From a virus (lineage: Duplodnaviria; Heunggongvirae; Uroviricota; Caudoviricetes): a stretch of 31,470 nt of DNA. Below are positions 982-31,470 of the stretch, piece by piece. The first letter of the stretch is position 1; the number at the start of each line of letters is the position of its first letter. Location: the IMG/VR virus record IMGVR_UViG_2541047775_000008. The stretch is one strand, 5' to 3'. A program made the translations under genes and the position numbers. A model generated the notes under the pieces. The model saw only the letters and a list, made by a program, of their open reading frames with translations, was not told the origin of the DNA and did not search any database.

Positions 982-1093
982 AAAGCCCCCCGATGAACAC
1001 GAGTTTTCTTGTTGTTTAGCCCTTTGTGGTTGTGTGATGAATATTTTTTTACCAGTAACATGCATTTTATGTGCATGTAATGTCGGTAAATAG

Positions 1094-1387
1094 TTAGCCA
1101 GTTTTGCGGCCTGAGTGTGACGATGTTGTTTCTTCTGGCCCAGAGTGTGCGACGACCGGGGAAATCTGCCCGGATTCTGGCGCAATCTCATCTGTCATAA
1201 TCCATAATGTATATTTTTTAAACAGCGGTGTGTTGACTACTTGCTTTACGATTTGTAGTCCTGGCTCTTTATGTCCACCTTCATAATTTTTCAACGAACT
1301 AAGTGCTAATCCACTAAGCTCGCAAAATTTTTTTTGTGTTAATCCCTCGGCCTTGCGAATAGCGCGAAGTTTCTCCGATATTTTCAT
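1094..1387 (-). CDS. C: Immunity repressor C (HTH), 97 aa
   Basis: HTH segment LTQKKFCELSGLALSSLKNYE; size and position (upstream of int, divergent from cox) as in P2 C (99 aa). Confidence 0.85.
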   Translation of the reverse strand: MKISEKLRAIRKAEGLTQKKFCELSGLALSSLKNYEGGHKEPGLQIVKQVVNTPLFKKYTLWIMTDEIAPESGQISPVVAHSGPEETTSSHSGRKTG

Positions 1388-1533
1388 TTGACATGGTTCC
1401 CCTATGGAGACTATATTCCCCTCAAAAGGTACTTGTTCGGAAACCTTTTGGGGCGTGAGTCCAGCCAGTCAGGAACGATCCTGAGCGGTTTTAAGAGGGC
1501 TGGACGGATAAGATTAGCACGAGAGGTGTGTTT
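1388..1533. promoter_or_regulatory. Divergent immunity switch region (Pc leftward, Pe rightward), operators presumed
   Basis: 146-bp intergenic gap between divergently oriented C and cox. Contains a 7-bp direct repeat TTCCCCT at 1397..1403 and 1416..1422. Promoter hexamers not confidently assigned. Confidence 0.4.
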
Positions 1534-1806
1534 ATGGACGCAAACAACTATGTGGTTAAGTATCCGATTGATGCGGTACACCCTGACAAGTTTGCAGAAT
1601 TGCTCGGAAAACCGCGTACTGCGGTCGTTGAAATGATCAAAGCTAACAAGTTGCCGGTAGTTGAATTTCGCGATCCAACTAAGCCGAATGCTCGTGCAGG
1701 AGACAAACTGGTTTTCATTCCTGAGTTCAATCGTGGTGTGCGTGAGGCATTCTACAACCGACCGATAGAACAGCGGGACGCGTGGCTGCTGTGGATGGGG
1801 CTTTAA
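1534..1806 (+). CDS. cox: Cox-like excisionase / early repressor, 90 aa
   Basis: Small protein immediately divergent from C, similar in size and character to P2 Cox (91 aa). ATG at 1534 with RBS GAGAGG 7 nt upstream; the ORF-track start at 1528 is a GTG. Confidence 0.8.
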   Translation: MDANNYVVKYPIDAVHPDKFAELLGKPRTAVVEMIKANKLPVVEFRDPTKPNARAGDKLVFIPEFNRGVREAFYNRPIEQRDAWLLWMGL

Positions 1807-1860
1807 ATCATTGCTAAATCAGGCTGTCAGCAACAGGGCGGACGGCATAAGGGGAACATC

Positions 1861-2049
1861 ATGGCGAACAAAAATAGTACGAACCAGTGCGGCACAGATA
1901 AGGCACTGACGCAGAGAGAAATTTTAGAACTGGCGGTAAAAATCGGGGATTTCATCAAAGAAGAGGCCGGACGCTTAGATAAACAGGTGTCCGGCAAAGA
2001 TATCAGCGTTATCGCTGGCGTACTGGACTTTATTCACCAGTGCGAGTAA
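1861..2049 (+). CDS. Hypothetical early protein, 62 aa (position of P2 orf78)
   Basis: ATG with RBS AAGGGG 6 nt upstream; position in early operon. Confidence 0.55.
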   Translation: MANKNSTNQCGTDKALTQREILELAVKIGDFIKEEAGRLDKQVSGKDISVIAGVLDFIHQCE

Positions 2050-2052
2050 TGC

Positions 2053-2229
2053 CTATTTTTTCGCGAGTTTTTCTTCGAGTTTTTTCTCAAGAACTGGATA
2101 GATAGCATCAAATAAGCGTGAAGCTCGGGTTTCTACAGGAACAGGCATTACTGATTGTTCAGTAAGTGCTCCGCCAATGACTGAACAGGTCTGCTCAAAA
2201 AGAAACTTGGTTTTTTCTAAATCATTCAT
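2053..2229 (-). CDS. Small reverse-oriented hypothetical protein, 58 aa
   Basis: ATG at 2229 (minus) preceded by AAGGA about 8 nt upstream. Convergent with the early operon. No homolog recalled. Confidence 0.45.
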   Translation of the reverse strand: MNDLEKTKFLFEQTCSVIGGALTEQSVMPVPVETRASRLFDAIYPVLEKKLEEKLAKK

Positions 2230-2346
2230 GTCGTTATTCCTTGTGTTACGAACTACTTGCTTACATTTGGAGTGAAAGCAATTGGATAGTACCACAAGAC
2301 CATGCGCCGGACATGGCTAAAAACCGGCTCTGTTTCAGGAGGAGTT

Positions 2347-2517
2347 ATGCAGGAACCTCGTTGTATTGCTCAGTTATTGCGTAACGAAAGCCCCAGGGCG
2401 ATTGACTTCACCATCACCCACGGGAAGGGACGCAAGGGAATCATTATCCGCACCAAAAAACAGAGTCCGTTAAAGAAGGCTCTGACCTTTCTGAAAAGCC
2501 GGAGGGTCTGGAAATGA
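2347..2517 (+). CDS. Hypothetical early protein, 56 aa
   Basis: Strong RBS AGGAGG 6 nt upstream of ATG 2347; stop overlaps B start (ATGA coupling). Confidence 0.5.
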   Translation: MQEPRCIAQLLRNESPRAIDFTITHGKGRKGIIIRTKKQSPLKKALTFLKSRRVWK

Positions 2518-3014
2518 CAGTGATGACGCTCAATCTCGTTGAAAAACAGCCAGCAGCTATGCGCCGGATAATTGGCAAGCATCTTGCCGTCCCTCGCTGG
2601 CAGGATACATGTGATTATTATAATCAGATGATGGAGCGCGAACGGCTAACGGTTTGCTTTCATGCACAGTTAAAACAGCGTCACGCAACGATGCGTTTTG
2701 AAGAAATGAACGACGTCGAACGTGAACGACTGGTATGTGCAATTGATGAATTGCGTGGCGCATTCTCAAAACGCCGTCAGGTTGGCGCAAGTGAGCATGC
2801 ATATATTAGTTTTTTAACAGTCAGTCAGCGTCGTACTTTATTTATGCACGCCGGATTGACAGAAAAAGAATTTAATCAGCCATACTGGCGAATTAATGAA
2901 GAGTCATGTTACTGGCGTGATGCTTTATTCCGTGCATTACGTGAATTATTCAGCCTGTTTGAGTATGCACCGACAATTCTGACGTCGGTAAAACCAGAGC
3001 AATATCTGCATTAA
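2514..3014 (+). CDS. B: B-like replication protein (P2 B is 166 aa and needed for lagging-strand synthesis), 166 aa
   Basis: Length identical to P2 B and position between cox and A; translationally coupled to upstream ORF. Confidence 0.7.
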   Translation: MTVMTLNLVEKQPAAMRRIIGKHLAVPRWQDTCDYYNQMMERERLTVCFHAQLKQRHATMRFEEMNDVERERLVCAIDELRGAFSKRRQVGASEHAYISFLTVSQRRTLFMHAGLTEKEFNQPYWRINEESCYWRDALFRALRELFSLFEYAPTILTSVKPEQYLH

Positions 3015-3077
3015 GTAATTAACCAGAGTTTTTAACGCACTTAATTGTGCGGGGCTTCTTTTTGCCTGGAGAAAGTC

Positions 3078-3302
3078 ATGCATACAGTTTCTGAAAATCA
3101 GTGCGGTATATACGCATTACTGCTGCAACAGGCCAGAACCGAAGCACAGGCCGACGCTGCGACGCGCTTTTCTTCTCATCTTGATGCCATGATTCGCCAC
3201 ATCACAAAGGCGGAGTTATCCCGCGTGGAGATAGTCGAGCTGCTCAGTCAGGAGTCGGAAAAATTTCACAATATCGGATTGTCTCGCGGGGAGGTGCTTT
3301 GA
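3078..3302 (+). CDS. Hypothetical early protein, 74 aa (position of P2 orf80)
   Basis: RBS GGAGAAAG upstream of ATG 3078; synteny. Confidence 0.55.
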
Positions 3303-4100: not shown

Positions 4101-6375
4101 AGCCTCCGGGCGTTTTGTCCCTCCTTCAGCATTTGCTGCAGGCACCGGTAAGGCGTTTACCGGTGCTTATGCATGGAACGCGCCACGCGAGGCCGTCGGG
4201 CGCGAAAGACCCCTTACACGTGACGAGATGCGTCAGGTGCAAGGTGTTTTATCCACGATTAACCGCCTGCCTTACTTTTTGCGTTCGCTGTTTACTTCAC
4301 GCTATGACTACATCCGGCGCAATAAAAGCCCGGTGCACGGGTTTTATTTCCTCACATCCACTTTTCAGCGTCGTTTATGGCCGCGCATTGAGCGCGTGAA
4401 TCAGCGCCATGAAATGAACACCGACGCGTCGTTGCTGTTTCTGGCAGAGCGTGACCATTATGCGCGTCTGCCGGGGATGAATGATAAGGAGCTGAAAAAG
4501 TTTGCCGCCCGTATTTCATCGCAGCTTTTCATGATGTATGAGGAACTCTGCGATGCCTGGGTGGATGCGCATGGCGAAAAAGAATCGCTGTTTACGGATG
4601 AGGCGCAGGCTCACCTCTATGGTCATGTTGCTGGCGCTGCACGTGCTTTCAATATTTCCCCTCTCTACTGGAAAAAATACCGTAAAGGACAGATGACCAC
4701 GAGGCAGGCATATTCTGCCATTGCCCGTCTGTTTAACGATGAGTGGTGGATTAGTCAGCTTAAAGGCCAGCGTATGCGCTGGCATGAAGCGTTACTGATA
4801 GCTGTCGGGGAGGTCAATAAAGACCGTTCTCCTTATGCCAGTAAACACGCCATTCGTGATGTGCGTGCGCGCCGCCAGGCAAATCTGGAATTTCTTAAAT
4901 CGTGTGACCTTGAAAACAGGGAAACCGGCGAGCGCATCGACCTTATCAGTAAGGTGATGGGCAGTATTTCTAATCCTGAAATTCGCCGGATGGAGCTGAT
5001 GAACACCATTGCCGGTATTGAGCGTTACGCCGCCGCAGAGGGTGATGTGGGGATGTTTATCACGCTGACCGCGCCGTCAAAGTATCACCCGACACGTCAG
5101 GTCGGAAAAGGCGAAAGAAAAACCGTCCAGCTTAATCACGGCTGGAATGATGAGGCATTTAATCCAAAGGATGCGCAGCGTTATCTCTGCCGTATCTGGA
5201 GCCTGATGCGCACGGCATTCAAGGATAATGATTTACAGGTCTACGGTTTGCGTGTCGTCGAGCCACACCACGACGGAACGCCGCACTGGCATATGATGCT
5301 TTTTTGTAATCCACGCCAGCGTAACCAGATTATCGAAATCATGCGTCGCTATGCGCTCAAAGAGGATGGTGACGAAAGAGGAGCCGCGCGAAACCGTTTT
5401 CAGGCAAAACACCTTAACCGGGGCGGTGCTGCGGGATATATCGCGAAATACATCTCAAAAAACATCGATGGCTATGCACTGGATGGTCAGCTCGATAACG
5501 ATACCGGCAGGCCGCTGAAAGACACAGCGGCGGCTGTTACCGCATGGGCGTCAACGTGGCGCATACCACAATTTAAAACGGTTGGCCTGCCGACAATGGG
5601 GGCTTACCGTGAACTACGCAAATTGCCTCGCGGCGTCAGCATTGCTGATGAGTTTGACGAGCGCGTCGAGGCTGCACGCGCCGCCGCAGACAGTGGTGAT
5701 TTTGCGTTGTATATCCGCGCGCAGGGTGGGGCAAATGTCCCGCGCGATTGTCAGACTGTCAGGGTCGCCCGTAGCCCGTCGGATGACGTTAACGAGTACG
5801 AGGAAGAGGTCGAGAGAGTGGTCGGCATTTACGCACCGCATCTCGGCGCGCGTCATATTCATATCACCAGAACGACGGAGTGGCGCATTGTGCCGAAAGT
5901 TCCGGTCGTTGAGCCTTTGACTTTAAAAAGCGGCATCGCCGCGCCTCGGAGTCCTGTCAATAACTGTGGAAAGCTCACCGGTGGTGATACTTCGTTACCG
6001 GCTCCCACACCTTCTGAGCACGCCGCAGCAGTGCTAAATCTGGTTGATGACGGTGTTATCGAATGGAATGACCCGGAGGTCGTGAGGACGCTCAGGGGTG
6101 CATTAAAACACGGCCTGAAAACACCAAATCGTCAGCAAAGAAACGGAAGTCCGTTAAAACCACATGAAATAGCACCGTCGGCCAGACTGACCCGGTCGGA
6201 ACGATTGCAAATTACCCGTATCCGCGTTGACCTTGCTCAGAACGGTATCAGGCCGCAGCGATGGGAGCTTGAGGCGCTGGCGCGTGGCGCGACCGTAAAT
6301 TATGACGGGAAAAAATTCACGTATCCGGTCGCTGATGAGTGGCCGGGATTCTCAACAGTAATGGCGCGGACATAA
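4090..6375 (+). CDS. A: Replication initiation protein A (rolling-circle nickase), 761 aa
   Basis: Sequence from MAVKASGRFVPPSAFAAGTGK onward matches what I recall of P2 gpA; length 761 aa equals P2 A. ORF-track start at 4048 is an upstream in-frame extension. Confidence 0.92.
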   Translation: MAVKASGRFVPPSAFAAGTGKAFTGAYAWNAPREAVGRERPLTRDEMRQVQGVLSTINRLPYFLRSLFTSRYDYIRRNKSPVHGFYFLTSTFQRRLWPRIERVNQRHEMNTDASLLFLAERDHYARLPGMNDKELKKFAARISSQLFMMYEELCDAWVDAHGEKESLFTDEAQAHLYGHVAGAARAFNISPLYWKKYRKGQMTTRQAYSAIARLFNDEWWISQLKGQRMRWHEALLIAVGEVNKDRSPYASKHAIRDVRARRQANLEFLKSCDLENRETGERIDLISKVMGSISNPEIRRMELMNTIAGIERYAAAEGDVGMFITLTAPSKYHPTRQVGKGERKTVQLNHGWNDEAFNPKDAQRYLCRIWSLMRTAFKDNDLQVYGLRVVEPHHDGTPHWHMMLFCNPRQRNQIIEIMRRYALKEDGDERGAARNRFQAKHLNRGGAAGYIAKYISKNIDGYALDGQLDNDTGRPLKDTAAAVTAWASTWRIPQFKTVGLPTMGAYRELRKLPRGVSIADEFDERVEAARAAADSGDFALYIRAQGGANVPRDCQTVRVARSPSDDVNEYEEEVERVVGIYAPHLGARHIHITRTTEWRIVPKVPVVEPLTLKSGIAAPRSPVNNCGKLTGGDTSLPAPTPSEHAAAVLNLVDDGVIEWNDPEVVRTLRGALKHGLKTPNRQQRNGSPLKPHEIAPSARLTRSERLQITRIRVDLAQNGIRPQRWELEALARGATVNYDGKKFTYPVADEWPGFSTVMART

Positions 6376-6827
6376 TGACAAAGATTCACAAAGTAAAGCT
6401 GCACGCAAAATATTTCGACCTTGTGCTGGAAGGAAAGAAACGCGCAGAGTTTCGGAAAAATGACCGTAATTATGAGCGCGGAGACACGTTGATTTTGCAT
6501 GAATGGGGGCAGGGTGTGTATACGGGGCGAAAGGTTGAAGCCCGGATAACAGATGTTACTGACCTGTCAGACTGGCTGGAAGATTATGTCTTGCTAAGTA
6601 TTGAGCTGCTTAATACAGGCGCATATGAGATTGTGAACTGGAAAGAACTTAGTGAGCGTGGTCTGGTATTCAGAATTAATCATGAAATTATGCATCAGCT
6701 CGGCCTTGCTGTTATGTATGAACCAGAGACGGGGATGTCTGGCGGGGCAATGGTTGCCACGGATGGAGCATGGAACTATTCAGATGAACAGATTGAGCGT
6801 GCAAAGCAAAACGGGTGGCTTGGATAA
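6375..6827 (+). CDS. ASCH/DUF3850-like domain protein, 150 aa
   Basis: N-terminal region KIHKVKLHAKYFDLVLEGKKRAEFRKNDRNYERGDTLILHEW fits the ASCH-like DUF3850 pattern. ATG overlaps A stop (TAATG). C-terminal 70 aa unassigned. Confidence 0.6.
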   Translation: MTKIHKVKLHAKYFDLVLEGKKRAEFRKNDRNYERGDTLILHEWGQGVYTGRKVEARITDVTDLSDWLEDYVLLSIELLNTGAYEIVNWKELSERGLVFRINHEIMHQLGLAVMYEPETGMSGGAMVATDGAWNYSDEQIERAKQNGWLG

Positions 6828-7030
6828 TGCACAGAATACCAGGCGAGATACCGCAACATAACACTAAAAATATCAAGCTGATGGCTATTGTTCACCGTCT
6901 ACAGCAGATTATGGTCAACGAAAATCTGACGCCCGACGAGTTGGTCGGGTGTGCCGAAATAGTCCGGGATAATTACGTGCGGTTTAACGATATAGAACAG
7001 TCTAAAATTGCACTGCTACCACGTTGTTGA
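6827..7030 (+). CDS. Hypothetical small protein, 67 aa
   Basis: ATG overlapping upstream stop (TAATG), suggesting translational coupling. No recognisable domain. Confidence 0.4.
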   Translation: MHRIPGEIPQHNTKNIKLMAIVHRLQQIMVNENLTPDELVGCAEIVRDNYVRFNDIEQSKIALLPRC

Positions 7031-7041
7031 TAGAAAACCCC

Positions 7042-7072
7042 AGCAGTACTGAAACATGCTTCCAGTGCTGCT
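7042..7072 (+). other. Stem-loop (10-bp stem with one G-U pair, 11-nt loop) at the backbone/cargo boundary
   Basis: AGCAGTACTG (7042..7051) pairs with CAGTGCTGCT (7063..7072), 12 nt after the stop at 7028..7030. No following U-tract. Confidence 0.3.
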
Positions 7073-7299
7073 GGAGGGAACAACGAACAGCGAGAGGTGG
7101 TAGTTGGCCATCATTTGAGTATCAGCATATGATTGGATTTATAACGGTTGGAAAGATTAATGTTGGTGAACTAATAAATTACAAATATTCACAAGAAGAT
7201 CTTATGTTACTAACATGAGTTTATGTGTAATATAGCTGTACATACCAATATCCGCTGTACCTTTGTTTTTATTTGGTTTGTCAGGTGTCACAGGTATGG

Positions 7300-7328
7300 T
7301 TGGCGTATGAGAATGGTTTATTTAAATT
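7300..7328 (+). promoter_or_regulatory. Candidate sigma70 promoter for the cargo gene
   Basis: TTGGCG (7300..7305), 17-bp spacer, TAAATT (7323..7328), about 30 nt upstream of ATG 7357. Hexamer choice is tentative in AT-rich DNA. Confidence 0.25.
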
Positions 7329-7356
7329 AAATATTGATTAAGGTTGAAAGAATGTC

Positions 7357-8253
7357 ATGAATAAAAGTAAAGCAATCTCAAGAATAGAGAGAGTGTTGAG
7401 AAGATTAAAGGATGGGAGTTTCACTGATAGTGATATTGATGTTCTTTTTGTTACGGCCCGTGAGTTGCCGAGTGCGCCCAAGTGTATTTTTGAAATTGGG
7501 AGTTTTGTTGCCCATAATCATCGGAGAGATCAAGGCGAGATAAAGGATATCATGCTGAGGAATCATTTGTTATTAAGTTTAAAATTTGGACGCGATAAGC
7601 ATGCTGTTAAACCAGAGTTAAATGAATACCCGAAATACTTACCTACATTAATCAGACTGCAATTAAGAATGTTCAGTGATGAGTTTTTAAAGGAGAAGTT
7701 AAACTTAAAGGGGGGGCAGGTAATTACAGCGAGGAAGAAGCTTAATAACAAGAAATCGTATATTGTTAATGATGGTGTTTGTAAGTTAACACCAGAAATT
7801 GGTTCCAATGAAGGGCGAATGATTAATGAAGCTTTGTCGTTACTCAATTGTTCTGACGCAATTAAGTTCGACTCTTTGTTTAATGAGCTGAAAATATTGC
7901 TTCGGAAGGAGATTCCAGGGGTGGACTTGATGCCGCTTGATAATAACAGGAGAGCAATAGCAGGCATCTTACTGTGTTTGTTGAATAATATTGATTTTTC
8001 TCTGATGCCTGAAGTCAAAGCAAAAACAGTCCTTAGTCTTAATGATGCAGATAAATCTGCAAATGTTTATGGTCAATATTATATAACACATGAAAAAGAG
8101 CCATTCACCGACGTGGCTATCATGAGCCCAGTGTTTCAGTCGGGGTATGATGTTAGTGACCTTTTTGATGAGCATGTGACAAATGAAAATATCGTAAATG
8201 GGGATGTCGAATTTAGTTTTGATTTGGGGAAAATAGTTGTGTCGAAATCATAG
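7357..8253 (+). CDS. Unassigned 298-aa protein on an AT-rich cargo island at the tin/old position; candidate anti-phage defence or other moron
   Basis: Long uninterrupted ORF in visibly AT-rich DNA (stop codons are frequent there, so a 298-codon ORF is unlikely by chance). Compositional break from flanking phage DNA. Location between A-proximal genes and cos. No motif I recognise. Confidence 0.75.
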   Translation: MNKSKAISRIERVLRRLKDGSFTDSDIDVLFVTARELPSAPKCIFEIGSFVAHNHRRDQGEIKDIMLRNHLLLSLKFGRDKHAVKPELNEYPKYLPTLIRLQLRMFSDEFLKEKLNLKGGQVITARKKLNNKKSYIVNDGVCKLTPEIGSNEGRMINEALSLLNCSDAIKFDSLFNELKILLRKEIPGVDLMPLDNNRRAIAGILLCLLNNIDFSLMPEVKAKTVLSLNDADKSANVYGQYYITHEKEPFTDVAIMSPVFQSGYDVSDLFDEHVTNENIVNGDVEFSFDLGKIVVSKS

Positions 8254-8293
8254 TTTAGACCCAAACGAGCACGTTCCTAATTTCCCTTCAATA

Positions 8294-8340
8294 CATGCAT
8301 TTAGTGCATGATTTTGCATGCGGCAGCGATCGTTTTTTAT
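8294..8340 (+). terminator. Possible terminator region downstream of the cargo gene
   Basis: Hairpin CATGCA (8294..8299) / TGCATG (8305..8310), then T-rich tract including TTTTTT at 8333..8338. Confidence 0.3.
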
Positions 8341-8416
8341 TGTTTATAATCGCCTGTATTGACGATGTTTTGATGTGTTATTGCAACTGCATTAAAAGCG
8401 CTCCATGAAGCGGGCG

Positions 8417-8435
8417 GGCGAGGCGGGGAAAGCAC
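8417..8435. other. Candidate cos site (19-nt cohesive end sequence)
   Basis: GGCGAGGCGGGGAAAGCAC matches my recollection of the P2 cohesive end; it lies in the GC-rich non-coding gap between the cargo gene and Q, where P2 cos is located. Confidence 0.5.
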
Positions 8436-8576
8436 TGCGCGCTGGCGGTGGTGCTGATTTTATTTTTTCAGCGTCTGAGCGCGTCGTGAAGGTGTTTACT
8501 TGGCCTGCTGGGGCGTTGGTGTGTCTGCGGGGTGTTTTGTGCGGTGGTGAGCGTGTGAGGGCGTGATGACGTGCTG

Positions 8577-8599
8577 TAAAAAAGCCGCCCGCAGGCGGC
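8577..8599 (-). terminator. Rho-independent terminator downstream of Q
   Basis: On the minus strand: GCCGCC-TGCG-GGCGGC hairpin followed by TTTTTT, immediately after the Q stop. Confidence 0.5.
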
Positions 8600-8604
8600 G
8601 ATGT

Positions 8605-21537: not shown

Positions 21538-21975
21538 ATGGAATTTTTATGGTCTCCCGCAAACCTGTCATTTTTTCCCGAGTCCCTAATACAGGAATAT
21601 ATCGATGCTGGCTGGGATTTATCAGATGCCGTTGCAATCAGCGATACCGTAAGAGCGGAATACGGTGGTGTATGGCCGCAGGGGAAAATTCTCTCCAGCG
21701 TGAATGGAATGCCAGCCTGGGCTGATATTCCACCGCCAACTCATGAGGAACAAATTGCCGCAGCCGAACTGGAAAAGCAGCAATTGATTGATCGGGTCAA
21801 CGAATACATAAACAGTAAGCAATGGCCTGGTAAAGCGGCGATTGGTCGTCTGAAAGGTGAGGAACTGGCACAATATAATTTGTGGCTGGATTATCTGGAT
21901 GCACTGGAAATGGTCGATATTTCCAGTGCTCCAGATATTGAATGGCCTACGCCTCCGGTAGTTCAGGCCAGATGA
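21538..21975 (+). CDS. G: Tail fibre assembly chaperone G, 145 aa (expressed orientation)
   Basis: Directly downstream of H; C-terminal motif DYLDALEMVDISSAPDIEWP is shared with the inverted paralog. Confidence 0.8.
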   Translation: MEFLWSPANLSFFPESLIQEYIDAGWDLSDAVAISDTVRAEYGGVWPQGKILSSVNGMPAWADIPPPTHEEQIAAAELEKQQLIDRVNEYINSKQWPGKAAIGRLKGEELAQYNLWLDYLDALEMVDISSAPDIEWPTPPVVQAR

Positions 21976-22549
21976 CATCCGGCGCGGTGCTGGTATCTGT
22001 TGCCACCACCGCGTCAATGTAATCCAGCACGGCGTTAAGTCGGGTTGTTTCTGCCAGCGTCAACTTCCGTCCGGCCTGTAATTTCAGCTGAATCAGACTA
22101 ATGGAAGCCATTGCTGCATCAATCAGTGACTGGCGCTGTGCTTCTGCCGCGTCTACTGCGGCACTATGCTGTGCCTCAGTATCCGTCACCCATTTCTCAC
22201 CATCCCATTTATCATATGGCGTTAACGGGGCGATAGTGGTTGTATTTTCAGGGTAATCACCCGGAGCTGTGATTTCTTTCGATTCTCCTGTTTCGGTGCT
22301 ATAGATGATTTCACCGCGATGGTCTGGCACATATTCCCATGAGTTAAAATCTGCAGAACGGCAGATTGCATAACCAGCTTTATGTGTAACTGGTGCATCT
22401 AAACAAGAACATGCCGGGATACCGACGCCAACCGCAAGATATTCAGTTGATGTGGAAATATATTCCCGCGTTTCACCATCATAATTATAAACGGTTATGT
22501 CTCCCGCTTTTATGGCAATGAGTTCGTTATTTAATACGGCTTTATTCAT
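21947..22549 (-). CDS. Alternative tail fibre assembly chaperone G', 200 aa (silent orientation)
   Basis: Convergent with G; C-terminus LDYIDAVVATDTSTAPDVIWP is homologous to the G C-terminus; 3' ends overlap by 29 bp. Confidence 0.75.
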   Translation of the reverse strand: MNKAVLNNELIAIKAGDITVYNYDGETREYISTSTEYLAVGVGIPACSCLDAPVTHKAGYAICRSADFNSWEYVPDHRGEIIYSTETGESKEITAPGDYPENTTTIAPLTPYDKWDGEKWVTDTEAQHSAAVDAAEAQRQSLIDAAMASISLIQLKLQAGRKLTLAETTRLNAVLDYIDAVVATDTSTAPDVIWPELPEA

Positions 22550-23021
22550 CAGGCAGCCCTCACGATATAATTAAAGGCAATGTTACGAGGTCGGTTTTCG
22601 TTTGCAGTTGGAACAACTCTGGAAGCATCGAATGTTACTCGCTTTGCATAACCACCGTTAATTGAATCAGATGAAGCAGCTCCGATGACGCTGGTTGTAA
22701 AAGCGCCAGAATCAGAAGGATAGGTATTAAACCTGACATCCACTAATGCACCAATTATATTTCGAATGGCATCGCCCTGTGATGAAAGCAAGCTACGGCT
22801 AGTATCTATTCCTCTTCCGTCATCCCAGCCACGAATAAACTCACCGCGTAAATCAGGCAATTTATTTGTCGGGTAAACTTTTGCCAGTTCCGGATACTCT
22901 TCGGCAGAAAAAGGCGCACCGTTGCATTTCAGCCAGCCTGTTGGCGGAGTGGCTGAAGGCCACGGAACAGGCACCCCAACAGGTAATGCAGAACCTTCTC
23001 CCAAACCAACGTTTATGAAAA
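22549..23021 (-). CDS. Alternative tail-fibre variable C-terminal cassette H' (promoterless, silent until inversion)
   Basis: Minus-strand ORF whose 5' end coincides with the right crossover site; would read ...LGLGEGSALPVG... after fusion to the H constant part. Typical tail-fibre C-terminal character. Confidence 0.7.
22996..23021. repeat. Right crossover site of the tail-fibre inversion (cix/gix-like, 26 bp)
   Basis: TTCTCCCAAACCAACGTTTATGAAAA; inverted relative to the site at 21153..21178. Confidence 0.6.
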
Positions 23022-23076
23022 TGCAGAGATAACGGGCAAGTGGCATCATCTCCGGTTTTTATTCAGGGGGATGCTC

Positions 23077-23670
23077 ATGCTTATTGGCTATGTACGCGTG
23101 TCAACAAATGACCAGAACACGGAATTGCAGCGTAACGCGCTGGAGTGCGCAGGATGTGAGCTGATTTTTGAGGATAAAATCAGCGGCACGAAGTCCGACA
23201 GGCCGGGGCTGAAAAAACTGCTCAGGACATTATCGGAGGGGGATACACTGGTAGTCTGGAAGCTGGACCGGCTGGGGCGTAGTATGCGGCATCTGGTCAT
23301 TCTGGTTGAGGAGCTGCGCGAACGCGGCATTAATTTTCGCAGCCTGACGGATGCCATTGATACCAGCACGCCGATGGGGCGTTTTTTCTTTCATGTGATG
23401 GGTGCCCTGGCTGAAATGGAGCGAGAACTCATTGTCGAGCGGACACGCGCCGGACTGGAAGCGGCCAGAGCTAAAGGTCGTATTGGTGGCAGGCGTCCGA
23501 AACTCACCGCGAGTGAGTGGGAGCAGGCCGGGCGGTTGCTGGCTGCAGGGGAATCACGTCAACGCGTGGCACTGATTTTTGATATTGGCCTGTCCACGCT
23601 CTATAAAAAATTCCCCGCCTCAGTGACAAAAAATAAATTGTGTCATCCCTTAGCCAACCGGGACAAATAG
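23077..23670 (+). CDS. Serine DNA invertase (Gin/Cin/Pin/Hin family), 197 aa
   Basis: N-terminus MLIGYVRVSTNDQNTELQRNAL with the catalytic serine motif; resolvase-like core; C-terminal HTH; RBS GGGGG upstream. Confidence 0.9.
   Translation: MLIGYVRVSTNDQNTELQRNALECAGCELIFEDKISGTKSDRPGLKKLLRTLSEGDTLVVWKLDRLGRSMRHLVILVEELRERGINFRSLTDAIDTSTPMGRFFFHVMGALAEMERELIVERTRAGLEAARAKGRIGGRRPKLTASEWEQAGRLLAAGESRQRVALIFDIGLSTLYKKFPASVTKNKLCHPLANRDK
23638..23656 (+). promoter_or_regulatory. Candidate late-promoter upstream element for the FI operon, located inside the 3' end of the invertase gene
   Basis: TTGTGTCA-N7-GCCA, the same motif as at 11480..11498, about 75-90 bp upstream of the FI ATG. Confidence 0.3.
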
Positions 23671-30487: not shown

Positions 30488-30567
30488 TCCTCAATTTGCC
30501 TGCTGCTTAATGCATTGCAGATGATTTGCTTCCGTTATACTAGCGTCAGTTGATAGCGGGAGTATTT

Positions 30568-31470
30568 ATGAATCAATCTTATGGACGGCTGGTCAGTCGG
30601 GCGGCGATTGCTGCAACGGCGATGGCTTCACTGCTATTGCTGATTAAAATTTTTGCATGGTGGTATACCGGGTCGGTGAGTATTCTCGCCGCGCTGGTGG
30701 ATTCGCTGGTGGATATCGGCGCGTCGTTGACGAATTTACTGGTGGTGCGATATTCCCTGCAACCTGCCGACGATAATCACTCGTTTGGTCACGGTAAAGC
30801 TGAGTCCCTCGCGGCGCTGGCGCAAAGTATGTTTATCTCCGGTTCGGCACTATTCCTCTTTTTGACGGGTATTCAACATCTGATATCTCCAACACCGATG
30901 ACAGATCCAGGCGTCGGGGTTATCGTGACAATTGTGGCGCTAATTTGTACGATTATCCTTGTCTCGTTTCAGCGGTGGGTGGTGCGCCGGACGCAAAGCC
31001 AGGCGGTGCGGGCTGATATGCTACATTACCAGTCTGATGTTATGATGAACGGCGCAATTCTGCTGGCGCTGGGGTTGTCCTGGTACGGCTGGCATCGCGC
31101 CGATGCTCTGTTTGCATTGGGAATCGGCATCTATATTTTATATAGCGCGTTACGCATGGGATATGAGGCGGTACAGTCATTACTGGATCGCGCATTACCT
31201 GATGAGGAACGGCAAGAAATTATTGATATCGTGACTTCCTGGCCGGGTGTTAGCGGCGCTCACGATCTTCGCACGCGGCAGTCAGGGCCGACCCGCTTTA
31301 TTCAGATTCATTTGGAAATGGAAGACTCTCTGCCTTTGGTTCAGGCACATATGGTGGCGGATCAGGTAGAGCAGGCTATTTTACGGCGTTTTCCGGGATC
31401 GGATGTGATTATCCATCAGGACCCCTGTTCCGTCGTACCCAGGGAGGGTAAACGGTCTATGCTTTCATAA
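30568..31470 (+). CDS. fieF: Host cation diffusion facilitator family Fe/Zn efflux transporter FieF (YiiP), 300 aa
   Basis: Protein [49 protein letters not shown]... matches what I recall of E. coli FieF; six TM helices followed by a cytoplasmic domain. Confidence 0.92.

Follow-up and report, generated by a model that had tools for sequence, protein, structure and literature searches.

The 31,470-nucleotide stretch of viral DNA analyzed here (IMG/VR virus record IMGVR_UViG_2541047775_000008; hereafter, the window) carries, inside the rightward early operon of a P2-like prophage, a 58-aa gene on the reverse strand (REV) that is paired tail to tail with a 62-aa forward gene (PARTNER) and preceded by a conserved control element with the signature of a leftward promoter. 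REV is conserved as a protein, the pairing and the promoter signature recur in other P2-like phages, and the genes located behind this signature are swapped from phage to phage. The explanation that we favor, with a probability of about one half, is that of an accessory convergent cassette in which the lysogen would express REV and early transcription from the opposite direction would shut it down, the two products possibly forming an effector/antidote pair.

A lone 58-aa open reading frame (ORF) in 31 kb is not beyond chance expectation. REV is more than a chance ORF because it is conserved in Escherichia coli, has homologs in other Enterobacterales down to ~35-40% identity, and evolves with a low ratio of nonsynonymous to synonymous substitutions (dN/dS). 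Of the 5426 complete E. coli genomes, 47 have REV, either as an annotated gene or as a conserved ORF. The homology search suggested in the original prediction, performed here by word-indexed and exhaustive profile methods, yielded ~33 clusters of homologs, 56-73 aa long, from E. coli, Salmonella, Enterobacter, Serratia, Dickeya, Yersinia, Kosakonia, and Trabulsiella, and scans of GTDB and IMG/VR added homologs from Providencia and Kluyvera; thus, the ORF is conserved in related prophages. Pairwise dN/dS values are 0.11-0.26, with synonymous sites near saturation, and such strong purifying selection on the protein contradicts the possibility, raised originally, of a purely non-coding antisense regulator.

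The start of the gene is equally well defined. As had been predicted, the sequence and the ORF list show a minus-strand ORF with a Shine-Dalgarno (SD) sequence, AAGGA (2242..2238), 8 nt upstream of the ATG, and an A/G-rich SD together with the start codon is retained at the same place across all homologous REV loci. A GTG-started version would be 80 aa long and extend to 2295; all homologs begin at the ATG instead. In identical or related prophages, REV has been called as a hypothetical protein by PGAP and, independently, by phage annotators. The protein is described by the motif M-x-x-x-E-K-x-x-F-L-F-x-Q-T-C ... F-D-x-x-Y-x-x-L-E-x-K-L-x-E-K-L; in the alignment, a variable linker separates an invariant N-terminal block (E5, F9-L10-F11, and Q13-T14) from a C-terminal block (F40-D41, Y44, L47, K50-L51, and L55). 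AlphaFold2 predicts a two-helix hairpin (predicted local distance difference test score (pLDDT) of 86), with helices at residues 3-24 and 32-57. Searches of this model with Foldseek against PDB and BFVD, and a profile search of PDB sequences, returned only chance helical matches. REV matches over its full length a PHROG family of 'unknown function' (phrog_14615; E = 8e-45). Taken together, these observations indicate that REV is a genuine conserved protein gene.

The window is a complete P2-like prophage, the early region of which is organized as follows.

Up to near 1000, minus strand: integrase, the leftmost gene of the prophage
1094..1387, minus strand: C repressor, an HTH_3 protein (Pfam)
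1388..1417, plus strand: candidate early promoter Pe, TTGACA-18-TATATT, abutting the C gene (promoter scan, 11/12 matches)
1534..1806, plus strand: cox, first gene of the rightward early operon (Pfam Phage_Cox, E = 1e-22)
1861..2049, plus strand: PARTNER, the 62-aa forward gene, in the early operon 3' of cox
2053..2229, minus strand: REV, the 58-aa reverse gene (ORF list), ATG at 2229..2227 and stop at 2053
2230..2346: gap of 117 bp between REV and orf78
2347..2517, plus strand: homolog of orf78, 55 of 56 aa identical to P2 Orf78, SD AGGAGG at 2337..2342
2514..3014, plus strand: B, of the P2-type backbone, followed by orf80-83 and A

The location of the candidate Pe agrees with that of the annotated Pe of P2. 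Nucleotide homology to P2-type phages begins at position 2345 of the window, where the P2-type backbone resumes, and identity from there onward is ~97%. In canonical P2, as annotated, cox is separated from orf78 by 10 bp; because P2 cox runs directly into orf78, the segment 1807..2346 of the window represents a ~540-bp two-gene insert relative to P2. The original prediction correctly held that a head-on gene is foreign to the canonical P2 operon, and that REV is followed by a 117-bp gap and a plus-strand gene (ATG at 2347) with a strong AGGAGG. It placed, however, the 62-aa gene at the orf78 position, which is not the case: a sequence comparison of PARTNER with P2 Orf78 revealed no similarity, and REV and PARTNER both fall in PHROGs other than that of Orf78 (phrog_273). 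It is the gene at 2347..2517 that belongs with the P2 Orf78 family, both by similarity and by its location upstream of, and overlapping, B. REV is absent from P2, L-413C, and most P2-type phages, so that the insert is present in some, and missing from other, close relatives at the same backbone site, as is typical of morons and other accessory genes.

REV and PARTNER are convergent, with stop codons 3 nt apart in the window. A hidden Markov model (HMM) built from the 62-aa forward gene and its relatives, and applied to the loci found via the REV protein, matched, in 22 of the 25 loci, an opposite-strand gene that adjoins REV, which corresponds to 14 of the 16 lineages obtained when near-duplicates were collapsed; across these loci, the stop-to-stop distance ranges from an 18-nt overlap to a 4-nt gap. 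PARTNER is itself subject to purifying selection (dN/dS 0.17-0.33). It is predicted by AlphaFold2 to consist of a disordered N-terminus and two helices (pLDDT 74) and belongs, over its full length, to phrog_12968, another family of 'unknown function' (E = 1.4e-47); comparison with Pfam, NCBIfam, and PADLOC gave no match of known function. In the window and its relatives, the pair lies between cox and orf78, and in other phages, between the C/Pe switch and cox. For example, in one such locus (L026), the C gene and the switch align to window positions 1075-1504 and cox to 1556-1804, with the pair inserted in between. Because the same pair is found on either side of cox, REV and PARTNER move as a unit. 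Thus, REV is not a lone insert but half of a conserved convergent pair.

The gap upstream of REV contains the following elements.

2294..2286, minus strand: predicted sigma-70 extended -10 element, TGGTACTAT, with TG at 2294..2293 and the hexamer at 2291..2286
2300..2316: inverted repeat 2 (IR2), CCATG (2300-2304) and CATGG (2312-2316), centered at ~-29 of the leftward promoter
2306..2328: inverted repeat 1 (IR1), GCCGG (2306-2310) and CCGGC (2324-2328), interleaved with IR2 in the order A-B-A'-B'
2257..2281, minus strand: stem-loop UUGCUU...AAGCAA, directly after the -10 element, weak in the window

The predicted leftward transcription start is near 2279. In every lineage examined, the pattern yTTGTGnTAnnnT (in the sense of the reverse gene) is located 38-69 nt upstream of the reverse ATG. 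Among 48 distinct variants of the element, the -10 hexamer retains T1 in 46, A2 in 46, and T6 in 47, with free variation at positions 3-5; for these variants, the TG was demanded by the search pattern itself, but the REV lineages, which were sampled independently, retain it too. A functional sigma-70 extended -10 promoter would be expected to show just such conservation, and we have thought of no other explanation for it. The own promoter that a head-on gene had been predicted to need, and that is characteristic of morons, is present here as a sequence signature. Visual inspection of the gap revealed no rightward promoter. On the minus strand between REV and C, we found no convincing terminator, the sole candidate being a weak 5-bp hairpin inside PARTNER (2017..2004).

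The repeats evolve in a coordinated manner. The two arms of IR2 show compensatory changes across lineages (CCATG/CATGG, CCACG/CGTGG, and CCCTG/CAGGG), and at its inner pair, 41 of the 48 variants have T-A and the other 7 have C-G, with no mismatches, although the search pattern permitted them. IR1 occurs as GCCGGG/CCCGGC, CCGGGG/CCCCGG, GCCGGA/TCCGGC, and CCGAT/ATCGG, and the A-rich spacer CTAAAAA occupies positions 2317-2323 of the window. Among 15 lineages that were sampled independently, changes affect both sides in 6 of the 11 pairs; 87% of the repeat cells are paired compared to 77% in shuffles, and the observed covariation was reached by none of 500 shuffles. The repeats were rejected as an intrinsic terminator, given that a U-tract follows on neither strand, and as Ogr (TGT-N12-ACA), LexA, or CII sites, the sequences of which they do not fit. 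The post-promoter stem-loop has a folding energy of -7.6 kcal/mol in the window (z-score of -0.8); the equivalent ~50 nt after the -10 element in 59 distinct variants have a median z-score of -2.27 and fold better than shuffles in most cases, with no difference between the sense and antisense folding energies (p = 0.37).

A pattern scan identified the element in 70 P2-like contigs of IMG/VR. The REV of the window follows it in only ~6 of these; in the remaining contigs, ~20 unrelated clusters of reverse ORFs start 29-83 nt downstream of the pattern match. Most of this reverse cargo is 58-78 aa long, the exceptions including one family of 151-158 aa and a pair consisting of a 39-aa protein and a 156-aa membrane protein. 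A forward gene abuts the reverse gene in 42 loci, with a median stop-to-stop gap of 0 and with 36 of the 42 within -7 to +9 nt. Altogether, ~20 reverse and 11 forward protein families are found behind the element. Fixed partnerships are typical (R2-F2 in 5/5, R5-F4 in 4/4, and R6-F5 in 4/4 cases), but the reverse family R0 pairs with F0, F1, and F9. The element is also present in the isolated phages SEN4, SEN5, vB_YenM_42.18, vB_YpM_115, and vB_YpM_117 and in 82 of the 5426 complete E. coli genomes, of which 1043 match a wider query covering window positions 1000-2400. By these comparisons, the element appears to be a general docking site for interchangeable gene pairs.

The cargo proteins offer few leads. 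Comparison of ten other reverse cargo proteins with Pfam and PADLOC gave nothing significant, with chance-level matches only in the latter, and eight other forward partners showed no family of known function in Pfam and PHROGs. A scan of PADLOC-DB v2 with REV, PARTNER, and the neighbors in two further loci (L003 and L008) gave no defense-protein match, and these neighbors matched, at most, PHROGs of 'unknown function' when compared with Pfam, NCBIfam, PADLOC, and PHROGs. Homology of REV with the other ~60-aa reverse cargo is not claimed: the profile-profile comparison gave a probability of 56% over only 21 N-terminal columns.

Two of the loci illustrate the variety of arrangements. E. coli 2013C-3492 (L003, 1665..2470) and ~14 other E. 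coli genomes carry a different convergent pair at the same site, with a 198-aa forward gene and a 68-aa reverse gene, neither with a family match, next to a promoter/repeat element that is 93% identical to window 2278..2346. In the Yersinia phage vB_YenM_42.18 (L108, OM046624.1), a 221-aa 'hypothetical protein' (vBYenM4218_008) is annotated at 2547..3212 on the strand of the early operon; a leftward promoter element is located at 2501..2545, and the opposite strand contains a 39-aa ORF, which is present in other phages too, followed by a 156-aa ORF with a hydrophobic stretch, so the annotated gene looks like a wrong-strand call. By eye, otherwise unrelated forward proteins of 60-200 aa (those of L008, L046, L052, L071, L087, and the window) seem to have in common a C-terminal amphipathic helix, S/T-x-x-D-[IL]-x-x-[IVL]-x-x-x-[LM], encoded directly beside the 3' end of the reverse gene.

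Under the explanation that we favor, window 1807..2346 would be a moron-type insert in the early region that carries a convergent two-gene cassette, with PARTNER borne on the rightward early transcript from Pe and REV transcribed from its own predicted sigma-70 extended -10 promoter in the gap. In the lysogen, the C repressor would silence Pe, leaving the leftward promoter unopposed, and REV would be made. Its RNA, which had been predicted from the orientation of the gene to be antisense to cox/orf78 in the early operon, must run antisense into PARTNER, and perhaps further, because the stop codons are 3 nt apart and there is no convincing terminator; upon entering the 3' end of PARTNER, the transcript could also act against leaky early RNA. 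Upon infection or induction, transcription from Pe would cross REV and its promoter en route to the essential B and A genes and would shut REV off by collision and by full-length antisense RNA. REV made in the lysogen might then bind the early protein PARTNER, either neutralizing it or being titrated by it, and such binding would make the two an effector/antidote pair coupled to the lysis-lysogeny state. Binding is proposed because both proteins are predicted helical hairpins of ~60 aa that travel together; we consider a direct interaction possible but less than probable.

Several observations weigh against this explanation. The leftward promoter has no good -35 element, and a generic -35/-10 scan of the gap detected no promoter, apparently missing it because the -35 is poor; of the promoter prediction that had been called for in the gap, it is the conservation of TGnTAnnnT across lineages that stands. 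The interleaved repeats that overlap the promoter are not explained by the favored model, and the main role of the element could lie in the rightward RNA. In 2 of the 16 lineages, L008 and L020, the forward gene that accompanies REV is unrelated to PARTNER and encodes 132 and 103 aa, respectively. Furthermore, in L025, the forward gene is similar to that of the window except for the last 9 codons, and those 9 codons together with REV match L010; because this recombination junction lies inside the cassette, the halves of the cassette are apparently reshuffled near the abutting stop codons. Such recombination between types, together with the alternative forward genes, weakens a strict cognate-pair model. 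Finally, REV provides no functional hint, having no informative match in Pfam, NCBIfam, PADLOC, or the structural searches. Of the original suggestion of a small moron encoding a toxin, an anti-defense factor, or a superinfection-exclusion factor, the moron part is borne out by the presence/absence polymorphism and the swappable cargo, but none of the three functions found a counterpart in Pfam, NCBIfam, PADLOC, or structural matches.

Three alternatives are serious, although we consider each of them unlikely. The one that survives best assigns the element mainly to the rightward early RNA: a compact H-type pseudoknot located ~8 nt upstream of the next ribosome-binding site would stabilize or insulate the replication mRNA downstream of a stretch that is not translated and is prone to antisense pairing, and REV would simply exploit the spot. 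Such a structure would account for the covariation in both helices and for the A-B-A'-B' order of the repeats, which is that of H-type pseudoknots. In the plus sense, loop 1 is 1 nt long in the window and in five lineages read by hand, and 2 nt in L020, and loop 3 is A-rich and 4-8 nt long, whereas the loop lengths in the minus sense do not fit; at its 3' side, the element stops 8-9 nt short of the next SD, which is that of orf78 in the window and that of cox in L015 and L026. Nevertheless, the plus-strand fold of the gap is no better than that of shuffles (z-score of +1.16; the tool does not model pseudoknots), and a scan of window 1000..3200 with the Rfam covariance models, which handle pseudoknots poorly, gave no match at E <= 1. 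Moreover, the T-A-n-n-n-T pattern beside the repeats is accounted for by a promoter and not by an RNA structure, and a palindromic operator over the promoter core would give the same symmetric covariation.

Alternatively, the promoter might be primary, as a regulatory device of the lysis-lysogeny circuit, and the ORFs mere passengers, with leftward transcription interfering with Pe, producing antisense RNA to the first early genes, and perhaps reading through into C and int, comparable to lambda PRE/oop or 186 pE. The element is indeed conserved whichever reverse gene follows, and its location, before or after cox, is always close to the 5' start of the early operon; the minus strand has no convincing terminator between REV and C, and the before-cox arrangement places C only ~300-500 nt downstream of the reverse gene. 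However, the REV protein is under clear purifying selection and is conserved down to ~35% identity, and the replacement of the cargo as whole forward and reverse pairs is typical of payloads. Nor does the element appear to be a core part of the switch because most E. coli P2-like prophages lack it (82 genomes with the element versus 1043 matching the wider query). The window also contains no gene for a CII-like activator. We therefore give this possibility a rather small weight.

A similarly low probability is assigned to REV being a stand-alone lysogenic-conversion factor, involved in superinfection exclusion, anti-phage defense, or action against satellites, with the forward gene an unrelated hotspot neighbor. 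In a 2026 survey, the integrase-to-primase (gpA) interval of P2-like phages was reported to hold 8% of their recognizable defense systems (PMC13586616), a location that would suit such a factor, as would the high diversity of the cargo at the promoter, including the pair of a 39-aa and a 156-aa membrane protein, and the three unrelated forward neighbors known for REV. Against it, PARTNER is present in 14 of the 16 lineages and shifts together with REV relative to cox, most of the other reverse clusters also hold to one forward partner, and PADLOC gave no matches.

That REV is a chance open frame antisense to an untranslated spacer, as its short length, the lack of domain matches, and the many antisense ORFs of similar size in the list might suggest, has next to no probability and is already refuted by the cross-genus protein conservation with synonymous saturation and low dN, the conserved start and SD, and the independent annotations.

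Known systems resemble the cassette in part. P2-like phages have accessory hotspots in the gpA-gpQ interval as well as in the tail gene region, and the P2 moron genes are old, tin, and Z/fun (Rousset et al. 2022, PMC9122126; PMC13586616). Like these morons, the cassette is accessory, occupies a fixed site between backbone genes, and has variable cargo and its own, here predicted, promoter, so that expression in the lysogen would be naturally expected. Unlike them, it is located inside the early operon beside cox and head-on to Pe, consists of very small genes in tail-to-tail forward/reverse pairs, and is marked by a conserved promoter and repeat element; in contrast to the cargo of the P2 hotspots, it has no recognizable defense domains. 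The literature searched on P2-like phages contained no account of such reverse genes, of their tail-to-tail pairing, or of a leftward promoter element between cox and B, and this recurring design in the early operon is apparently undescribed.

Lambda PRE and 186 pE are weak promoters that require CII, and oop is a non-coding RNA. The leftward promoter resembles PRE/oop and pE in being a downstream promoter aimed at the repressor and integrase genes, with an RNA that would be antisense to the first lytic genes. It differs in that the signature is that of a self-sufficient extended -10 promoter, with no cII-like gene; REV, unlike oop, is a conserved protein, and the element is optional among P2-like phages. 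The interval between cox and B holds only PARTNER, REV, and orf78, and the repeats are interleaved palindromes, neither of which corresponds to a CII-dependent promoter. The window has a P2-type (C/Cox) switch; an outline of the 186-type switch is available (PMC3448106).

The tail-to-tail geometry without room for terminators is shared with type I toxin-antitoxin loci and with the excludon. In Bacillus subtilis prophages, type I modules such as bsrG/SR4 and txpA/RatA have convergent transcripts that overlap at the 3' ends, and the excludon concept refers to mutually exclusive, antisense-coupled genes. Because there is no room for terminators, the two RNAs of the cassette must overlap as well, and expression of one strand should depress that of the other. 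Unlike in type I loci, however, both members are conserved soluble helical proteins, neither of which is a short hydrophobic toxin, and one member sits in a long essential operon. We rejected a type I toxin-antitoxin identity given that both products are charged, soluble-looking predicted hairpins under protein-level selection, and a type II identity given that the genes are convergent and have no matches in Pfam, NCBIfam, or PADLOC. Membership of REV and PARTNER in phrog_14615 and phrog_12968, respectively, adds no mechanism beyond the 'unknown function' label.

Elsewhere in the window, the classical accessory hotspot between gpA and gpQ (6339..8600) contains an ASCH/DUF3850/DUF7415 protein (6339..6827) and a 298-aa protein without a Pfam match (7357..8253), and lacks the P2 old and tin genes. 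Within 21947..23670, a Hin-type serine invertase (23071..23670) adjoins the oppositely oriented tail-collar (22549..23049) and tail-fiber-assembly (21947..22549) genes on the minus strand, which suggests an invertible tail-fiber segment involved in host-range switching. The prophage is flanked, apparently, by cpxP, which lies beside int in the identical locus of E. coli 746 (L004, 1..276), and by a FieF-type cation-efflux gene at the right end of the window (30550..31470). E. coli BEN2908 and MS14384 also carry this prophage. The mechanically called int ORF is 396 aa long, ~70 codons beyond the annotated 326-aa integrase.

P2 is a textbook temperate phage: its early operon is regarded as simple and unidirectional, and its accessory genes are assigned to the gpA-gpQ interval and to the tail gene region. 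The present findings indicate that P2-like phages with a conserved, predicted backward promoter and swappable tail-to-tail gene pairs within this operon form a sizeable minority, which includes isolated, viable phages. For annotation, this is a warning that reverse genes can be missed or placed on the wrong strand. The cassettes offer a defined, easily cloned set of tiny proteins without assigned function that are probably active in the lysogen, as well as a naturally occurring case in which the switching of genes by head-on transcription can be studied. Given that these phages have no CII, a leftward promoter directed at Pe, C, and int would add a new input to the lysis-lysogeny decision. It is also conceivable, albeit improbable, that the cassette belongs to a widespread, undescribed class of two-gene modules in Peduoviridae that are coupled to lysis and lysogeny, each module consisting of a rightward early effector and a small leftward antidote that are exchanged as pairs behind a fixed control element. 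This element would join a constitutive extended -10 promoter that faces the early operon to an H-type pseudoknot of the early transcript that insulates the replication genes. If so, head-on transcription would act as a switch restricting the armed effector to the lytic cycle, and the families found here (~20 reverse and 11 forward) would constitute a reservoir of new host-takeover, anti-defense, or exclusion functions.

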